From contig NZ_CP088239.1 in the NCBI RefSeq assembly GCF_021054785.1, positions 1,860,001-1,892,000 on the forward strand: DNA of 32,000 nucleotides, read 5' to 3'. The notes beneath the pieces are model-generated. The model saw only the letters and a list, made by a program, of their open reading frames with translations, was not told where the DNA came from and did no database searches. The translations under genes were made by a program, and so were the position numbers. Position 1 is the stretch's first letter. Each line of letters opens with the position of its first letter. Shown piece after piece: positions 938 to 12,684 of the stretch. The stretch is from Tannockella kyphosi. GTDB taxonomy: Bacteria > Bacillota_I > Bacilli_A > Erysipelotrichales > Coprobacillaceae.

Positions 938-1955
938 TTTTTCTCCCTCCTTTATATAAAGGATTTTCTACTTTGTTTTCTTTAAATTTACGAACAAAAC
1001 TTATTGGTATTTTTCTAGTCAAAAACTTTCCATCACGATAAAGCATCACTACTTTATTCTCCCCTTGTTCTCGATCAAACAAACATACTTCATAAATTTG
1101 ACGAACAGTACTATTATTCTCTTGTGTTCTTCTAACTAAAACACCAATATGGAAAAAAGAATAAATCGTATTTTCCATATCTTCTCCTTGTTTACCTAAC
1201 ATATTCATAATTCTTTCCGGTATATTTTGAGCTGTATCTACATGAATGGTTGTAATACAACCAGTTCCTGTAGAACTGCTTTCTAATAAATATTGTACTT
1301 CCCTACTTCTTGCTTCACTTAATAAAATCCAGTCTGGTCTTTGCCTTAGTGATGTTTTTATGGCTGCACTATATGTGAAATCTTCATCCACCTTAAATTC
1401 AACACAGTCATGACCAGGATTAATGCTTGCATATCGTAATTCTAGATTATCTTCTATCGTTATCACTCTTTGTGTGGAGGAAATAAATTGGGTTAAATAT
1501 TTTACGTATTCTGTTTTCCCACTACCAGGGATCCCACAAACAATAACCGACATCCTAGACTTTATGCATGCTTGCATAAAGTCATCTAGTTCTTTTGTAC
1601 AATAACCATTTTGAATACTTTCTTTTGTTATTTTACGAACTGGCGGAGTCTTTCGTATTGAAATAGAATAACCAGTATTTGTCACGGAGTCATGAACTAC
1701 CGATATTCTTAGTCTATCTGTTTCTGCTTCTAAAAGAGGATAATATTTATTAAAATTCTCATTTACAAGATTGGATAGTTTTTGACAGAATACAGATACA
1801 AATGTTTCATTTAATTTATCATCGACACTGTATCGACCACATTCATCATCTATCCACAAATGATGCCCATTCCAGTTAATATCAGTAATACCTTCATCTT
1901 CAATATAAGGCAACAGATCTCCGTAATCCTCTTTTCTCAAATGTAGGTACTTCAT
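915..1955 (-). CDS. CpaF/TadA/VirB11-family secretion ATPase (T2SS-E type)
   Basis: 346 aa. Walker A is CGIPGSGKTE. The Walker B/Asp region is DWILLSEARSREV. The His-box-like motif is GCITTIHVD, matching the GxxTTIHA pattern of CpaF/PilT-like ATPases. The start codon lies 2 nt after the stop of the mini-pilin ORF. Confidence 0.8.
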   Translation of the reverse strand: MKYLHLRKEDYGDLLPYIEDEGITDINWNGHHLWIDDECGRYSVDDKLNETFVSVFCQKLSNLVNENFNKYYPLLEAETDRLRISVVHDSVTNTGYSISIRKTPPVRKITKESIQNGYCTKELDDFMQACIKSRMSVIVCGIPGSGKTEYVKYLTQFISSTQRVITIEDNLELRYASINPGHDCVEFKVDEDFTYSAAIKTSLRQRPDWILLSEARSREVQYLLESSSTGTGCITTIHVDTAQNIPERIMNMLGKQGEDMENTIYSFFHIGVLVRRTQENNSTVRQIYEVCLFDREQGENKVVMLYRDGKFLTRKIPISFVRKFKENKVENPLYKGGRKNENKVIE

Positions 1956-1957
1956 TT

Positions 1958-2131
1958 TTACTCGCCGTCTGAAACTTCTATATCTGTTGTTACTTCAGTG
2001 AAGAAATTATCAATAATATCTCCATAATATCCTTCTATTGGTTCTTTAAATGCACCGACAATACTTATCAATATTACAATAACTAATACTACTACACATG
2101 TTGAACCATATTCTTCTATAAATGCTTTCAT
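1958..2131 (-). CDS. Flp1-like mini-pilin (57 aa), below the ORF-track size cutoff
   Basis: Hand translation: MKAFIEEYGSTCVVVLVIVILISIVGAFKEPIEGYYGDIIDNFFTEVTTDIEVSDGE. The RBS is GGAGAAAGAA immediately upstream of the ATG. A short charged leader ends in EEYG, followed by an 18-aa hydrophobic helix ending in FK, as in Firmicute Flp-like pilins (leader ..KEEDG, helix, ..FK). It lies between the anchored 126-aa protein and the ATPase. Confidence 0.55.
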   Translation of the reverse strand: MKAFIEEYGSTCVVVLVIVILISIVGAFKEPIEGYYGDIIDNFFTEVTTDIEVSDGE

Positions 2132-2149
2132 TTCTTTCTCCTTGACGTT

Positions 2150-2530
2150 CTACGTCTCTTTTATATCATCTATAATCATTGTTTGTTTGGAATTAACGGT
2201 ACCCGTTTTCCCATCAATGTATTGAAAATACATTGTTACTTCTATCGATAATAATCCTTTTTCATAATCCACTCCATAAATAACAAACTCTACTTCACTA
2301 TCTGAATTTATTTGTATAAAGAAGTTTCTAGCAAACTCACTAATTAATTCTTCATTAGATTCAATGGGGTAACGTTGATCATCTAATACTTTTAAAGTTT
2401 GTTGGATGGCAGTAGTAAGTGCTAAGTCTACTTCATTTTGGTGATTGCTTTTGATATGAATGGTGCTTAAAAATAAAATAGTAATGATTGTAATAATCAT
2501 CATGCAAAATCCCTGGATACATGTTTTCAT
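2150..2530 (-). CDS. small N-terminally membrane-anchored protein of the pilus operon (pseudopilin/TadE-like role possible, family not recognised)
   Basis: 126 aa with a single N-terminal TM helix (GFCMMIITIITILFLSTI) followed by a beta-rich soluble domain. RBS is GGGAGA. The start lies 1 nt after the stop of the upstream 631-aa gene. Confidence 0.6.
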   Translation of the reverse strand: MKTCIQGFCMMIITIITILFLSTIHIKSNHQNEVDLALTTAIQQTLKVLDDQRYPIESNEELISEFARNFFIQINSDSEVEFVIYGVDYEKGLLSIEVTMYFQYIDGKTGTVNSKQTMIIDDIKET

Positions 2531-2531
2531 A

Positions 2532-4427
2532 TTATTCTCCCATAAAATTTTCTACAAAATATTGATTAGTATTAGACGAGGGGGCTGTCTGTAGTACCCA
2601 TTCTTTTATATCTTGTACAGATTGACTATTATAATAATATGTTTTGTAACTAGACTCTTCTAACGTTTCTTCTAATAAGTCAAAGTATTCCTTATTTTGC
2701 CATATTGATTCTTCTTCTAAAGAATCAATATAATCTTCACTTATAAAACGTATAAAGGATGTTTGCTTTATTTCACTGCTATCTTGATAAATATAAATTG
2801 TATCTGTTTGTTCTACTACTTTTTGATAACTATCGCATACTTGATAAACTACTTCTATTGTTTTGGTTGCTCCATCTTCTAGTACCGTATTAATGGTTGT
2901 TGGATTTTCTACCACCGTTCCATCGTCATAGATTACTTTAGTAACTATGATACTGTCACTAATATCACCATCTTCCTTATCATATGCTTTTATTTTTTCT
3001 AGCACATCTTCTATCGTTACATCCCATGAGGATAAAAACCATCTTTCCATACTTTCAATTTCAGGTTCTTGATTTACAAGTATCTTTAAGTAATAATATG
3101 TTTTTGACATTCCTAAATCTTGTACTGATAAAATCGCATTATAAATACCGGCACTCATAAATTCGTTTTGGGAATCAAAGGAACTAAGTGTTATTTTGTT
3201 GGTAATATCACCATCTTCATTATCATATGCTTCAAAAAAGTCAGTAATATTTATTTCATCTCCTAATTGAACAACAAAATAGATATCATCTAAAAATGGT
3301 GCTATTTGACTGGTGGTTACATACTCTTCATCCATAATTGGACCGGTTATTACAGGGGATGTATTTTTCCACATAGCATACAAATAAGCATTCGAATTGG
3401 CACTATACGTACTTCCAGGTAAGTATTTTGTTCCGGTCCCATAATAGTTGGTATTCCAACTATCAAACAAATAACCTACTTTTGTTGGTTCAATCAAAGA
3501 AATAGTTTCATCTATTCCATACCACTTCTTTTGAAAGCTTGGAGCTCCTGAACCACCAGTTGCACTATATTGAATATAATAACTATCTCTACTTACATTT
3601 ATCGTTAAGGGATCACCATAATACTTTAAAAAAGTATCACATATCCATCCTGTAGTCCCTGATGCACTTGCAACTACTCGATACCTTGAATCACTATATC
3701 CTTCTTCTTTATACTTAATTTCATACCAATATACTTTATTATCCACATCATAATATGTCTCACCTGTCATCGTACCATTTGCAACAGAATAAATATCTCC
3801 TGGTGTATAGTATAAATCTGCTCCATCTTCATTTGTTGCTATTGCACCTGTTTTAGAAGGCTCTTCTCTAACAAAGAGTCTCGTTTGATCTGTATATAAC
3901 ATTGTATTTATTTGTGTTGTACTAAACTCTATAGTATACCCATCATTATTAATCGAACTCAATGGTGCCATATAGGAAATATCAATCGTTGCATAGGATC
4001 TATTTTGATGTAGAATTTGAAGTGTTAAATGATACTCTTCATCGGTAGTACTCGTAATATCACTCATTGCAACTTCGAAATGAAAACCTACATCTTGATA
4101 ATAACTATACGTATCATTTAATGCTCGATTAAGTTCTGTATGATCAATATAATAATCTAACTTATCTTGATACGTAACACCATTTACTATTAGCTCATAG
4201 TTATGCATATTAGACGATACCCCTTTGGTTGTATAATCAAAAGCATCATTATTTTCATAAGCATATCCATATACATGCATAGTTCCATCTACTATCTCCA
4301 TCAAATTAATCCGATAAGTAAGATCATTTCCATCACTCGTATATCCTCCACCAGCCTGTACATGTAGGATATTCATAGACCAAAACAACCCAAATACCAT
4401 TACTGCAAACAATAGTTTCCTCTTCAT
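2532..4427 (-). CDS. secreted multidomain surface protein (SH3b-like, Listeria-Bacteroides repeat, two DUF5011-type Ig-like domains)
   Basis: 631 aa. The signal peptide is MKRKLLFAVMVFGLFWSMNILHVQA/GG. An SH3b-like segment reads LFVREEPSKTG...GWICDTFLKYY. An Flg_new-type repeat reads GYLFDSWNTNYYGTGTKYLPGSTY...AYLYAMWK. Two Ig-like modules carry the D-x-EDGDI(T/S) signature (AYDNEDGDITNKITL and AYDKEDGDISDSIIV). There is no LPXTG. RBS is AAGGAGGAAGGAGA. Confidence 0.8.
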   Translation of the reverse strand: MKRKLLFAVMVFGLFWSMNILHVQAGGGYTSDGNDLTYRINLMEIVDGTMHVYGYAYENNDAFDYTTKGVSSNMHNYELIVNGVTYQDKLDYYIDHTELNRALNDTYSYYQDVGFHFEVAMSDITSTTDEEYHLTLQILHQNRSYATIDISYMAPLSSINNDGYTIEFSTTQINTMLYTDQTRLFVREEPSKTGAIATNEDGADLYYTPGDIYSVANGTMTGETYYDVDNKVYWYEIKYKEEGYSDSRYRVVASASGTTGWICDTFLKYYGDPLTINVSRDSYYIQYSATGGSGAPSFQKKWYGIDETISLIEPTKVGYLFDSWNTNYYGTGTKYLPGSTYSANSNAYLYAMWKNTSPVITGPIMDEEYVTTSQIAPFLDDIYFVVQLGDEINITDFFEAYDNEDGDITNKITLSSFDSQNEFMSAGIYNAILSVQDLGMSKTYYYLKILVNQEPEIESMERWFLSSWDVTIEDVLEKIKAYDKEDGDISDSIIVTKVIYDDGTVVENPTTINTVLEDGATKTIEVVYQVCDSYQKVVEQTDTIYIYQDSSEIKQTSFIRFISEDYIDSLEEESIWQNKEYFDLLEETLEESSYKTYYYNSQSVQDIKEWVLQTAPSSNTNQYFVENFMGE

Positions 4428-4597: not shown

Positions 4598-5800
4598 TTA
4601 GTTAATTCTTTCAATTTTATATCCTAAATCAATAAACTCTTGTAAGATAGCATCAATATGTGCATTTCCATTTGTTTCTACTGTTACACGTAATTCCACT
4701 TCTGAAAAACGAGCAAAGTTTTTAAACTGATTATGATCTACACCAATAACATTCGCGCTTAGTTTCGCAAGTATTTGTGAAACTAATTGAAGTTGCCCTG
4801 GTTTATCTGGTAATTGAATAGAGAATGTGAAAATTCTTCCTCTAGCAATTAATCCTTTATTAATCATAGAAGAAATAGTCATCACATCAATATTCCCTCC
4901 ACTAATAACAGATACTACTTTTTTATTTCTTTCTTCTATCTTTTTCAATCCTGCTAAAGATAAAATACCAGAACCTTCTGCTACTAATTTATGTTTTTCT
5001 ACTAACATTAAAAAAGCATCCATTAAATCATAATCACTAACTGTTACTACTTCATCTACATATTGTTTAATATATTCAAAAGTACTAGCACCTATTTGAC
5101 GAACAGCAGTCCCGTCAGCAATCGTATTCACTTCTTCTAATAAAACTACTTGGTCTTCTGCAATTGCTGCAGCAGCACTAGCAGCACCTTCTGGTTCTAC
5201 ACCAATTATTTTTATGTTTGGATTTATATTTTTAGCTGCACAAGCAATCCCTGAAATAAGTCCTCCTCCACCAATTGGTACTAAAATAACATCTACATCT
5301 GGTAACTCTTCTAATATTTCTAAAGAGATTGTTCCTTGTCCTTCAATAACATCCTCATCATCAAAAGGATGTACATAAGTATATCCATATTCTTCTTGTA
5401 AAAAAACCGCATGTTTGGCAGCATCATCATAAACCTCTCCATGCAATACTACATTTGCACCATGACTTTTAGTTGCCTCAATCTTAATCAAAGGTGTATG
5501 ACTAGGCATAACAATAGTCGATTGAACACCTAACTTTTTAGCTGCATACGCTACTCCCTGCGCATGATTCCCAGCCGAAGAAGCAATTAATCCTTTTTGC
5601 TTTGCTTGATCATCTAACTTAACTATTTTATTATAAGCACCACGTAATTTAAATGCCCCTGTTTTTTGTAAGTTTTCTGGTTTAATATATACATCATTTC
5701 CACTTTCTAATGAAAAAGCTTCACTATGTATTAATTTTGTTTCCTCTATTACTTCATCTACCCTCTTTTTTGCAGCTTGAAAATCTTGTAATTCCAACAA
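4598..5800 (-). CDS. ilvA: threonine ammonia-lyase (threonine dehydratase) with C-terminal ACT-like domain
   Basis: 400 aa. The PLP-lysine motif is NLQKTGAFKLRGAYNK. Also present are SAGNHAQGVAYAA and a GGGGL loop, with a C-terminal regulatory domain of about 80 aa. TTG start with GGAGGGG 6 nt upstream. Confidence 0.9.
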   Translation of the reverse strand: MLELQDFQAAKKRVDEVIEETKLIHSEAFSLESGNDVYIKPENLQKTGAFKLRGAYNKIVKLDDQAKQKGLIASSAGNHAQGVAYAAKKLGVQSTIVMPSHTPLIKIEATKSHGANVVLHGEVYDDAAKHAVFLQEEYGYTYVHPFDDEDVIEGQGTISLEILEELPDVDVILVPIGGGGLISGIACAAKNINPNIKIIGVEPEGAASAAAAIAEDQVVLLEEVNTIADGTAVRQIGASTFEYIKQYVDEVVTVSDYDLMDAFLMLVEKHKLVAEGSGILSLAGLKKIEERNKKVVSVISGGNIDVMTISSMINKGLIARGRIFTFSIQLPDKPGQLQLVSQILAKLSANVIGVDHNQFKNFARFSEVELRVTVETNGNAHIDAILQEFIDLGYKIERIN

Positions 5801-6868: not shown

Positions 6869-7297
6869 TTATCTCCCTAATTTCATTTCTATTAATTTTA
6901 TAAGTAAATCTGTATCTTTTTTCGTTCTTTTTGAATAATGGGTAGAATATCCTTTTTTTCTCTCTTTTTGTCCAATATGACGTTGCATCAAATACATATC
7001 AATATTATCATTTGTCACTTCAAATCCTCTAGGATTAATCACATCACTCCCCTTTGCTAGAACCAAAGCAGATAAACCATAATCTTGTGTTATTACTAAA
7101 TCACCCTTTTGACATTCTTTTACAATCGCTAAATCAACTGCATCATTACCTGGATGAATCCCTACAACCTCACTATATTCATCCTCTATCTCATGATTAT
7201 AATCACAATAAATAATCACTGGAACTTCTTGTTTCCTTGCTACCTGTACTATTTCCTTACGATCAGGACAAGCATCCCCATCAATTATAACTTTCAT
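6869..7297 (-). CDS. YaiI/YqxD family protein (UPF0178/DUF188)
   Basis: 142 aa. It has the N-terminal MKVIIDGDACP hallmark and DxxI...D.VIT.D typical of the family. Confidence 0.85.
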   Translation of the reverse strand: MKVIIDGDACPDRKEIVQVARKQEVPVIIYCDYNHEIEDEYSEVVGIHPGNDAVDLAIVKECQKGDLVITQDYGLSALVLAKGSDVINPRGFEVTNDNIDMYLMQRHIGQKERKKGYSTHYSKRTKKDTDLLIKLIEMKLGR

Positions 7298-8076
7298 TAT
7301 TCCACCACTATCTTTCTAGATCTTTGTACATTATTCCCTTGAGAATTAGTAACAGCATAAATCACTTCATAAAAACCAGCTTGTGATGTATCAACATCAT
7401 TTTTTATAATCACAATTTCACCAGTAATATCATTTCCTAATCCATCACTTGCACTAACTCCTGCTAATGGATCAAAATAACTTCCTATTTCAATAGTCAC
7501 TGTATCAACACCACTAAATGAAGGAATATTGTTATTATCACCAACATTTATTTTGATACGTAACGTTGTAGAAGAATTATTAGAAGCATCTCTTACAACA
7601 ATACTTTCAATATAAGTACCCTCTTCTAAATATGTTTTTGATTCTATATATTCTTGTCCCTCTAAAAAATAAACAGTATAATCCATTGACTCATCACTTA
7701 CAACTACCAAATCACTAGCAATCAATGTTGCTCCAGTAGCAACATTGACTTGTACAGACAATAAGCTTGCAGTTGGGTTGGTAGTATCTATCACTTGAAT
7801 AGTAAAAGGATATTCTTTCCCTAAATAAATAATAGTGCAATTATAAGTACCTACTTCATTCATCACAGCACTAAGATTCAGTTCCGCATCTTCTTTTACT
7901 TGATCACTAGCAATAATATAATCACCAATATTTGTAGATATTTCTGACTTTCCATATTCATATACAAATGTATCTTTTTTTAGTTGAATCTCCTCAATAT
8001 TTGTAGTTAATAAGAGTAACGAACAGCTACAAACAATAAAAAAAGTACTTATACACATAATAATTTTATTTTTCAT
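7297..8076 (-). CDS. exported protein with DUF5011-type Ig-like domains
   Basis: The ORF track starts at 8100, but that ATG lies inside the -10 box. The second ATG (8076) has AAGGGGG 8 nt upstream and gives 259 aa. The N-terminal hydrophobic signal/anchor is MKNKIIMCISTFFIVCSCSLLLL. The C-terminal module is ASDGLGNDITGEIVI...GFYEVIYAVTNSQGN, the same Ig-like signature seen in the 631-aa protein. Confidence 0.7.
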   Translation of the reverse strand: MKNKIIMCISTFFIVCSCSLLLLTTNIEEIQLKKDTFVYEYGKSEISTNIGDYIIASDQVKEDAELNLSAVMNEVGTYNCTIIYLGKEYPFTIQVIDTTNPTASLLSVQVNVATGATLIASDLVVVSDESMDYTVYFLEGQEYIESKTYLEEGTYIESIVVRDASNNSSTTLRIKINVGDNNNIPSFSGVDTVTIEIGSYFDPLAGVSASDGLGNDITGEIVIIKNDVDTSQAGFYEVIYAVTNSQGNNVQRSRKIVVE

Positions 8077-8098
8077 GCTATCGCCCCCTTTAGGTTTC

Positions 8099-8107
8099 AT
8101 TATAGCA
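8099..8107 (-). promoter_or_regulatory. extended -10 promoter (TGcTATAAT) for the Ig-like/yaiI/cof/DUF4250 operon
   Basis: Minus strand reads TGCTATAAT, about 25 nt upstream of ATG 8076 and downstream of the gltX terminator. Confidence 0.45.

Positions 8108-10168: not shown

Positions 10169-10170
<2 letters not shown>
10141..10170 (-). terminator. intrinsic terminator after pyrG
   Basis: Minus strand: AGAACUUCA-UAUUUU-UGAAGUUCU (9 bp) followed by UUUUGU. It overlaps the stop codon. Confidence 0.65.
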
Positions 10171-11788
<1,618 letters not shown>

Positions 11789-11810
11789 TTACCTATTATG
11801 TTTATAAAAC

Positions 11811-11848
11811 AAAAAAAGCCCTTTGCAGGGTTGTGCACTTTAGTGCCC
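11811..11848 (-). promoter_or_regulatory. candidate pyrG leader attenuator (GGGC start, hairpins, U7 tract)
   Basis: The minus-strand transcript would begin GGGCACUAAAGUGCACAACCCUGCAAAGGGCUUUUUUUG. It forms GCAC-UAAA-GUGC, then CCCU-GCAA-AGGG (4 bp, GNRA loop), followed by C and U7. Confidence 0.4.
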
Positions 11849-11854
11849 TTTAAT

Positions 11855-11883
11855 ATACTATCAAATCATTGCCTATATTACAA
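11855..11883 (-). promoter_or_regulatory. sigma-A type promoter of pyrG
   Basis: Minus strand: TTGTAA (11883-11878), 17-nt spacer, TAGTAT (11860-11855). GGGC begins 7 nt downstream of the -10 box. Confidence 0.55.
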
Positions 11884-11903
11884 GCCTTTTGTGTTTAAAC
11901 AAT

Positions 11904-11923
11904 AAAAAAAGAGCCTAAGCTCT
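11904..11923 (-). terminator. weak intrinsic terminator-like hairpin
   Basis: Minus strand: AGAGC-UUAG-GCUCU (5 bp) followed by U6. The stem is palindromic, so it also folds on the plus strand, but only the minus strand has a clean U-run. Confidence 0.35.
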
Positions 11924-11931
11924 ATTTTTAC

Positions 11932-11967
11932 GATCAGGTGCTTTTTTGGGAGAGGAGACACCTGATC
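11932..11967. repeat. hairpin A carrying the loop motif TTTTTTGGGAGAGG
   Basis: GATCAGGTG (11932-11940) pairs with CACCTGATC (11959-11967), 9 bp perfect. The 18-nt loop is cTTTTTTGGGAGAGGaga. Confidence 0.85.
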
Positions 11968-11990
11968 AGTTTGTATTATGTTCATCGACC

Positions 11991-12026
11991 GTGCTATAGA
12001 TTTTTTGGGAGAGGGATCTATAACAC
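11991..12026. repeat. hairpin B carrying the same loop motif TTTTTTGGGAGAGG
   Basis: GTGcTATAGAT (11991-12001) pairs with ATCTATAaCAC (12016-12026), 10 bp with one C/A mismatch. The 14-mer at 12001-12014 is identical to the one at 11942-11955. Confidence 0.85.
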
Positions 12027-12172
12027 TTCTATCGACAAGACATATCCTACTAAAGGTATATGAATTGAATGTGAACTTTGTATTTATTTGTCATTTTTTT
12101 ATACAAAAATTATTTTTTTATGATATTTTCATAGTTTTTTATGTAAACAATAACTATAGATGCCTAATTGAA

Positions 12173-12196
12173 TAAAAAAACAACCCAAAGGTTGTT
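12173..12196 (-). terminator. intrinsic terminator after the PH-like membrane protein gene
   Basis: Minus strand: AACAACC-UUUG-GGUUGUU followed by U7. Confidence 0.75.
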
Positions 12197-12684
12197 TAAG
12201 CTGACTTTTCTTTTTTTCTTTCTTTACGTTGTTTCTTTTCCATTACACGACGATTTTGCGCATATTCTTTAACTTGCACATTTACACGTTTGTTTCCTGA
12301 AACAATCGCACTTGTAAACTCTAAATTTGACTTTGGAGAAACAACAACACGTTTCCCACTTTCTAAATATATTTCTAATGTTCTAGGATCAGTAATTATT
12401 TTTGTAAGCCTAGGTGCTGGATCACTAATAGTTTCTATTGACATTAAGTTATACTCTTTTGTTTTTCTTAAACGATAATGAACTTCTAAAGTCTTACGTG
12501 TAATAGAATACCCACTAGGTCTAAACCCTAGCAAATAACCATAAATAATTAAACCAAATGCTGCAACCGTAAGTGCTCCTGTAAAATCCCCTTGAAAAAT
12601 TAATATTACAAAATAAATGAAATAAAACAGTTCAAAATATAACACTGCAGGAATTAATCTTTTCTTAAATACTTTTGTTTCCAT
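12196..12684 (-). CDS. membrane protein with bacterial PH-like (YdbS/YdbT-type) domain and Lys/Arg-rich tail
   Basis: 162 aa. It has two N-terminal TM helices, then an approximately 80-aa segment (YSITRKTLEVHYRLRKTKEYNLMSIETISD...) typical of bPH domains. The C-terminus is KKQRKERKKEKSA. RBS is GGAGGGG. Confidence 0.6.
   Translation of the reverse strand: METKVFKKRLIPAVLYFELFYFIYFVILIFQGDFTGALTVAAFGLIIYGYLLGFRPSGYSITRKTLEVHYRLRKTKEYNLMSIETISDPAPRLTKIITDPRTLEIYLESGKRVVVSPKSNLEFTSAIVSGNKRVNVQVKEYAQNRRVMEKKQRKERKKEKSA

Follow-up and report, generated by a model that had tools for sequence, protein, structure and literature searches.

The question raised by this locus is whether two hairpins in the spacer upstream of pyrG belong to a gene of their own and, if they do, what the RNA encoded there would do. 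The stretch analysed, hereafter the window, comprises 32,000 nucleotides of the Tannockella kyphosi genome (contig NZ_CP088239.1, positions 1,860,001 to 1,892,000; G+C content of ~31%), and the two hairpins, A and B, present the same 14-nt motif in loops closed by dissimilar stems; a preliminary description of the sequence had taken them for part of an undescribed small RNA (sRNA). The analysis presented here points to an sRNA gene on the minus strand that spans, with its promoter, 12076-11903, and we are confident, though short of certain, that this gene is real. The fuller reading, in which it encodes an anti-Shine-Dalgarno (anti-SD) sRNA under the control of a two-component system, draws on analogy with characterized RNAs, and we consider it probable with considerably less assurance.

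Fold and conservation of the hairpin unit

Both hairpins were seen in the sequence as the preliminary description had drawn them. The core of hairpin A pairs GATCAGGTG (11932-11940) with CACCTGATC (11959-11967); in minus-strand RNA, two U·G pairs extend this stem to 11 bp, and the hairpin (11931-11968; arms 11968-11958 and 11941-11931) closes a 16-nt loop, CUCCUCUCCCAAAAAA, at 11957-11942. Hairpin B, on the same strand (arms 12026-12016 and 12001-11991), carries the loop CCCUCUCCCAAAAA at 12015-12002, and the one position that mismatches as C/A in the plus-strand sequence becomes a G·U pair in minus-strand RNA. The shared 14-mer, TTTTTTGGGAGAGG, was found at 11942 and 12001, where it had been reported, and a pattern search of the 32 kb window allowing up to two mismatches found no third copy. 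The intrinsic terminator of the preliminary description, AGAGC-UUAG-GCUCU followed by U7 and flanked by an A-run (11903-11930, minus strand; hairpin and T-run at 11903-11923), was likewise in place and was called terminator-like, and the two boundaries between which the unit had been set, the terminator of the upstream gene (12178-12197) and the pyrG promoter, are both present.

The predicted transcript runs on the minus strand from ~12036 to ~11904/11903, about 133-134 nt. For the 134-nt RNA 12036-11903, the minimum free energy (MFE) was -40.4 kcal/mol against a shuffle mean of -19.6 (z = -6.06), and the MFE and centroid structures are the same, with an outer helix around hairpin B followed by a linker, hairpin A, and the terminator; the two C-rich loops are left open and carry CCCUCUCCC and CUCCUCUCCC. 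In the outer helix, GUCGAU at 12036-12031 pairs with GUCGAU at 11989-11984, the two terminal pairs being G·U; it encloses hairpin B, and the two form a predicted 5' domain at 11984-12036. The linker, GAACAUAAUACAAAC (11969-11983, minus strand), is A/U-rich, 15 nt long, and single-stranded in both structures, and it is nearly identical in the third unit of L082, one of the relatives introduced below. Just upstream of it, where the outer helix ends on its 3' side, stands an AUG (11986-11984) that opens no conserved open reading frame (ORF), the reading frame in L082 meeting a stop after four codons. The preliminary description had proposed an independent unit of 120-220 nt; the independence of the unit held up and the upper size did not, as the RNA is predicted to be ~133 nt long, with its promoter at 12076-12044.

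For comparison, pyrG loci were fetched from relatives, and labels such as L001 refer to these loci. The preliminary description had pointed to the pyrG-upstream regions of relatives as a place to look, and the hairpins and the loop motif do recur there across genera: in many of these spacers an element lies upstream of pyrG and on the pyrG strand, each with a ~10-bp stem of differing sequence, a loop that starts CCCCUCUCCC and continues with A/U-rich bases, and an intrinsic terminator. Faecalibacillus intestinalis and a close metagenome-assembled genome (L003 and L002) have one unit, as does Thomasclavelia spiroformis (L087); Thomasclavelia (L001 and L084/L085) and the relative L083 have two, and another relative, L082, has three. 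The relative L097 likewise has a homologous unit ahead of pyrG and in the same orientation, and L125 and L128 have two tandem units each. What is duplicated in tandem is the whole promoter-to-terminator cassette (three in L082; two each in L001, L083, L084, L125, and L128), and a hairpin with a U-run ends every relative's unit. The units take two forms. S units consist of a 5' mini-helix (GUC...GAC), a single C-loop hairpin, and the terminator, while in D units a 5' helix (GUCGAU...AUCGA) surrounds one C-loop hairpin and is followed by an A/U-rich linker, another C-loop hairpin, and the terminator. The window unit is of the D type, together with all three L082 units and the second L083 unit; the outer helix UCGAU...AUCGA recurs in the double-hairpin units of L082 and L083 without variation, and hence without covariation.

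The stems of the C-loop hairpins do covary. Thirteen hairpins from 7 loci were aligned with MAFFT, without fitting to a model (alignment A3): 98.5% of cells were paired, 9 of the 10 pairs showed compensatory double changes, and none of 500 shuffles did as well, while controls in which the partners were slid gave 22-49% paired. A covariance model of the hairpin, R1, gave 32 matches, and in the alignment of the 29 distinct rows (A4), which is model-fitted and so leans towards structure, 96.9% of cells were paired and all 10 pairs showed compensatory changes. Across the rows of both alignments the loop core CCCCUCUCCC hardly varies as its surroundings drift; the variant CCCCCUUCUUCCCC, in L001 and L084, is pyrimidine-only. 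With filters off, R1 finds exactly two copies in the window, hairpin A (49.3 bits, E = 2e-10) and hairpin B (44.8 bits, E = 2.9e-9). Because the stems vary, and covary, while the loop is conserved, we agree with the preliminary description that this is a selected RNA hairpin, and the covariation across 13 hairpins in relatives places the pair beyond a chance repeat.

The same alignments distinguish the two strands. Read on the pyrG strand, the A3 stems contain 5 wobbles and 2 mismatches, and read on the other strand they contain no wobbles and 7 mismatches; for A4 the corresponding counts are 12 and 9 against 2 and 19. Model R1 scores no higher than 14.7 bits on the plus strand of the window, compared with the minus-strand scores given above, and the conserved promoters and U-runs are those of the minus strand. 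Wobble counts, model scores, promoters, and U-runs together argue that the transcribed strand is the minus strand, as for pyrG. This strand test, with a conserved promoter and a terminator belonging to the unit itself, supports the independent minus-strand sRNA that had been proposed.

The novelty claimed for the unit also stands. No Rfam family matched anywhere in the window at gathering score, and permissive searches (11700-12300 at E ≤ 10; three related units at E ≤ 5) gave nothing beyond chance level (e.g., ncr1015, Yfr10, and STnc40). Literature searches aimed at such an RNA found no regulatory sRNA described for Erysipelotrichales or Coprobacillaceae.

The promoter and its candidate regulator

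In place of a -35 box, the minus strand carries the direct repeat GTTCACA-ttca-ATTCATA (TTCAYA-N5-TTCATA) at 12076-12059, a candidate site for an OmpR-family response regulator. The -10 box, TAGGAT (12049-12044), lies exactly 9 nt downstream, and the predicted start, G12036, is the first base of the conserved GUCGAU/GUCAGA, 7-8 nt past the -10 box; it is placed there from promoter geometry and from the conserved (AT)GTC present in all units. Alignment of 11 units from 8 loci gave GTTCAYA, 4 nt, RTTCATA, exactly 9 nt, TAnnnT, ~7 nt, and GUC, the 9-nt spacing and TAnnnT being present in every aligned unit and the hexamers TTCAYA and TTCATA being spaced 11 bp start to start. The window has a single exact match to the repeat, and in Coprobacillaceae loci the repeat is found solely ahead of sRNA units. 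Another promoter-like site, TTTACA-16-TATCAT (12147-12120, minus strand), is without counterpart in relatives, and the conserved direct-repeat promoter was preferred. In L125 (~2990-3040) and L128 (~1000-1050), four in-phase repeats with 11-bp periodicity were observed, reading GTTCACA-caaa-GTTCTCA-taaa-ATTCACA-gtaa-ATTCATA in the sRNA orientation, an arrangement that suggests binding by two regulator dimers.

Direct repeats with an 11-bp period that replace the -35 box are a hallmark of promoters activated by the OmpR/PhoB family. The repeat of the window and of all aligned units has the same form as the consensus of Bacillus subtilis YclJ and Listeria PieR, TTCATAGTTTGTTCATATTT, that is, TTCATA-N5-TTCATA, and the YclJ/PieR system activates an adjacent MacB-type ABC transporter (PMC9545042). 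In L129, a MacB-type ABC transporter, composed of a 501-aa FtsX permease and a 225-aa ATPase (1894-4078, minus strand), is followed directly by the sRNA (1740-1900); upstream of this operon there is merely a degenerate repeat with different spacing, TTCACA-caatg-TCTTGA-ttatt-TTCATA. That the regulator is specifically of the YclJ/PieR type is a tentative suggestion, which we would sooner doubt than adopt.

A different repeat, TTCACA-N5-TTCACA, set in A/T runs, was observed in an unrelated lineage of uncultured Clostridia, where it flanks pyrG on the opposite strand with two to three copies per locus (L029, L035, L039, L049, L054, L059, L067, L071, and L078; e.g., L029 at 12229 and 9090, minus strand). 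Its role may be that of a promoter element or of a further response-regulator box.

Proposed function and competing explanations

The mechanism we propose would begin with an OmpR-type response regulator that, once bound to TTCAYA-N5-TTCATA, switches on transcription from the -10 box lying 9 nt further on. The resulting transcript of ~133 nt would begin near G12036 and stop at the intrinsic terminator at 11923-11903, and both of its stem-loops would have unpaired loops that expose the near-invariant pyrimidine core CCCUCUCCC. These loops would serve as seeds that pair with the G-rich SD regions of target mRNAs (GGGAG, GAGGGG) and so block translation initiation, the presence of two equivalent seeds raising avidity. 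By analogy, translational repression through loop-SD pairing under two-component control appears to be the most likely mechanism, because an unpaired CU-rich seed, seed redundancy, tandem copies, and a response-regulator promoter are features shared with RsaE, RoxS, and LhrC. The likeness of the loops to the C-rich anti-SD loops of the RsaE/RoxS class had been noted in the preliminary description and is supported by the comparative evidence, with the mechanism itself taken over by analogy.

Several points weigh against this proposal. We infer the start, the end, and even transcription itself from the sequence. No complement of the loops of at least 8 nt was found in ~300 kb of related DNA (19 loci), save on the antisense strand of the sRNA itself, and when the translation-initiation regions of 7 loci were scanned for duplexes, merely generic G-rich SDs were ranked. 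The invariance of the 10-nt core exceeds what generic anti-SD pairing would need, which leaves room for a protein or for one conserved partner. The terminator loop of the window unit, UUAG, is without the C-rich motif, and the unit has two C-loop hairpins instead. As for the regulator, the promoter repeat also resembles PHO boxes, which in Bacillus read TT(A/T/C)ACA with an 11-bp period and in Streptomyces read GTTCAY, and which replace the -35 box in two to four copies; the four copies in L125 and L128 are compatible with such boxes. A tblastn search with three OmpR-family regulators found no response-regulator gene near any unit in 45 sRNA-bearing sequences (the window and 44 loci), and the identity of the regulator is therefore uncertain. 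A search for PstB gave no match in 2.2 Mb of fetched loci, the query being an approximate E. coli PstB sequence.

Two genes of the window have G-rich ribosome-binding sites (AAGGAGGGGA and AAGGGGGAG), a PALP enzyme gene (4598-5800) and an Ig-like surface protein gene (7297-8100), with orthologues in L082, L083, L084, and L087. The duplex scan ranks the PALP gene high in the window and in three relatives (4 of the 7 loci), and the Ig-like gene in three relatives; in the window itself the latter falls outside the top six. As targets these two genes are a weak lead, not distinguishable from generic SD strength.

Among the competing explanations, the one that fares best, though we think it unlikely, is that the RNA titrates or recruits a protein, its invariant CCCCUCUCCC loops being bound by an RNA-binding protein such as a chaperone or one of the KH or S1 type, in the manner of an RsmY/Z- or 6S-like sponge; having several loops and tandem copies would then increase its capacity. 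Such a role would fit a 10-nt core that is almost invariant across genera whose PyrG proteins are merely 74-78% identical, the repetition of the motif both within the transcript and between tandem genes, and the lack of any long complementary target found nearby. However, no candidate protein is known, the C-rich motifs of sRNAs from low-GC Gram-positive bacteria have repeatedly been shown to pair with SDs, and the variant CCCCCUUCUUCCCC of L001 and L084, in staying pyrimidine-only, fits base pairing better than a protein site.

A second possibility is that the sRNA is coupled to pyrG, either because its loops pair with the poly(G) extension made at low CTP and so modulate antitermination or because read-through feeds the pyrG leader; the first of these had been raised in the preliminary description. 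The unit does directly precede pyrG, in the same orientation, in at least four genera, whereas the gene on its other side differs, and its loops are unbroken C/U tracts of 9-14 nt, with variants that are pyrimidine-only, so that G could pair throughout. Moreover, the reiterative-transcription switch known for pyrG of B. subtilis itself uses pairing between poly(G) and a pyrimidine tract (PMC7039003). In the window, however, pyrG has a promoter of its own, on the minus strand, with a -35 box TTGTAA (11883-11878), a -10 box TAGTAT (11860-11855), and a GGGC start (11848-11845), and a self-contained attenuator hairpin, CCCU-GCAA-AGGG with U7 (11830-11811); start and attenuator are downstream of the sRNA hairpins and separate from them. 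The GGGC and a terminator with a pyrimidine arm (5' arm CCCU, CUUCC, or CUUUCC) are found upstream of pyrG in L001-L003 and L081-L089, and the whole leader, made up of promoter, A-rich tract, GGGC start, and pyrimidine-armed terminator, is conserved across Coprobacillaceae. It appears to be a complete reiterative-transcription attenuator, in which case the mechanism known from B. subtilis would also operate in Erysipelotrichales; it had no match in Rfam.

The distribution of the sRNA bears on the same point. Metagenome contigs were scanned for the promoter repeat followed by CCTCTCCC, with no reference to pyrG, which gave 120 loci, 36 of them with R1 matches. In 22 of these 36, pyrG is directly downstream, 3 are cut by the contig end, and 11 have the unit away from pyrG; in most of the latter (such as L098, L105, L129, L151, and L161) the genes of an FtsX-type permease and an ABC ATPase immediately precede it. 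The lineage concerned is Longibaculum/Coprobacillus-like, the permease having its nearest named relatives in those two genera. In L099 the unit is upstream of a release-factor-like gene. Conversely, Massilimicrobiota (L086), L088, and L089 have no unit upstream of pyrG and keep the pyrG leader and attenuator. Because some lineages carry the sRNA elsewhere, others have the attenuator without it, and pyrG has its own leader, the sRNA appears to be a separate gene, and its adjacency to pyrG appears to be inherited synteny of particular lineages and not functional coupling. The strong terminator that ends each unit also argues against such coupling, and since antitermination at pyrG is intramolecular and cotranscriptional, competition in trans would be kinetically unlikely. 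We therefore regard the coupling of the sRNA to pyrG as very unlikely, and the same slight probability attaches to the specific idea that its loops capture poly(G) extensions in trans and so put attenuation of CTP synthase under envelope/stress two-component control.

We hold it more improbable again that the hairpins are a REP or miniature mobile element, or mere terminator or insulator hairpins without function as RNA. They are a hairpin-forming intergenic repeat, and copy number does vary between genomes, from one to three units, but in ~500 kb of related DNA R1 finds no copies outside one pyrG-upstream spacer per locus, and the window has its two and no others, in keeping with the preliminary description, which had made dispersed copies the mark of a REP-like family. 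Covarying stems around a conserved loop are the opposite of what REP elements show, and the duplications take whole promoter-RNA-terminator cassettes. Viral contigs yielded five pattern matches, none of them a true member, and the element appears not to be phage-borne. Finally, we give almost no credence to a functional RNA on the plus strand that exposes GGGAGAGG (GGA, SD-like) as a CsrA-type decoy, which had been suggested earlier, or as the leader of a 65-aa ORF (11978-12175), for although both hairpins also fold on that strand (z = -3.1) and the terminator hairpin is nearly symmetrical, the wobbles there turn into C·A mismatches, the promoter, U-runs, and model scores all favor the minus strand, and the ORF, already thought spurious and treated as such here, has no NCBIfam or Pfam match and overlaps the conserved minus-strand promoter.

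The genes on either side of the sRNA are both on the minus strand: pyrG (10169-11761) and, upstream, a gene for a small membrane protein with a bacterial PH domain (12196-12684), which ends in the terminator at 12178-12197 mentioned above. Between that terminator and the sRNA promoter is a very A/T-rich spacer of ~100 nt (12077-12172), within which the promoter-like site at 12147-12120 falls. PyrG of the window is 74-78% identical to those of Thomasclavelia, Faecalibacillus, and Massilimicrobiota; no identical sequence was found among 5.8 billion clustered proteins, and the closest match, at 90% identity, is on one 5.8-kb Logan metagenome contig that begins at the pyrG promoter.

Relation to known small RNAs

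The 6C RNA of Actinobacteria (RF01066) has a similar layout, with two hairpins, a conserved C run in each loop, and then a terminator. It is not known to have a direct-repeat promoter, and the RNA of the window differs in coming from another phylum, in matching no Rfam model, and in its loop sequence.

Closer parallels are offered by sRNAs of Bacillota. RsaE and other Rsa RNAs use an unpaired conserved UCCC to bind the ribosome-binding site and prevent formation of the initiation complex (PMC2790875), and RoxS, with C-rich regions CRR1-4, is activated by ResD, whose site lies near -65 (PMC4409812). The RNA of the window resembles them in having several unpaired C-rich regions able to pair with SDs, their core being kept in 29 hairpins, and in the OmpR-family regulator proposed here from the promoter, as RsaE and RoxS are activated by the OmpR-family regulators ResD and SrrA. 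Unlike them, it gives no match to model RF01820, and its promoter element abuts the -10 box, at about -21 to -38 or up to -60, and has a different sequence. RsaE, moreover, is single-copy, has been reported only in Bacillales, and has the motif CCCC(U), whereas the present family occurs as one to three tandem units, lies outside Bacillales, and has CCCCUCUCCC.

The csRNAs of streptococci, controlled by CiaRH, are intergenic and terminator-ended, with 2-6 of them in each genome and with complementarity to SD regions; their promoters consist of TTTAAG-N5-TTTAAG, 10 bp, a -10 box, and a start 7 nt later, with no -35 box (PMC3091779). The promoter described here has the same plan, with two hexamer repeats N5 apart, ~10 bp, a -10 box, and a start ~7 nt on, but its hexamers are TTCAYA/TTCATA with a 9-nt gap and not (N)TTAAG with 10 bp. 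The RNAs also differ in where the C-rich motif is placed: the csRNA anti-SD sequence is between two stem-loops, whereas here the motifs are in the loops and the linker at 11969-11983 is without CCUCC. There is no conserved anti-AUG (CAU) and no match to an Rfam model.

LhrC1-5 of Listeria monocytogenes are five partly tandem copies, strictly dependent on LisRK, whose redundant CU-rich UCCC motifs pair with GGGAG-type SD regions (PMC4132741). Like LhrC, the present RNAs are small and terminator-ended and occur in several, partly tandem copies (one in the window and two to three in relatives), and the C-rich motif is in a hairpin loop and, in relatives of the window unit, also in the terminator loop. 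The motif is unpaired in the predicted fold, and binding to target SDs is here proposed; control by an OmpR-family two-component system would be a further likeness, to judge from the form of the promoter. They differ from LhrC in having no Rfam match, a different promoter element, and a host in Erysipelotrichales in place of Bacillales, and in that the seed of the window unit is a 9- to 10-nt invariant CCCCUCUCCC, shown twice in near-identical loops. C-rich terminator loops (CUCCCC, ACCCCA, CCCUCCCUA, ACUCCCA, and UUCCCC) were observed in many related units (L001 9829-9862, L084 9730-9765, L097, L082 530-560, L125, L128, and L161) and may provide these RNAs with an additional seed of the LhrC kind.

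Faecalibacillus, Thomasclavelia, and other Coprobacillaceae are common in the gut, and the family offers testable handles in a covariation-supported structure, a nearly invariant 10-nt seed, and a sharply defined promoter box; the box could guide searches for the rest of the regulon and for its two-component system, and the seed could guide genome-wide target prediction. Set beside the systems above, the family appears to be previously undescribed and of a known kind, probably that of two-component-dependent anti-SD sRNAs with C-rich loops. As a kind of regulator it would not be new, the design being known from LhrC with LisRK and from the csRNAs with CiaRH; if our reading is true, Erysipelotrichales would be the third order of Bacillota in which an envelope/stress two-component system drives multicopy C-rich anti-SD sRNAs.

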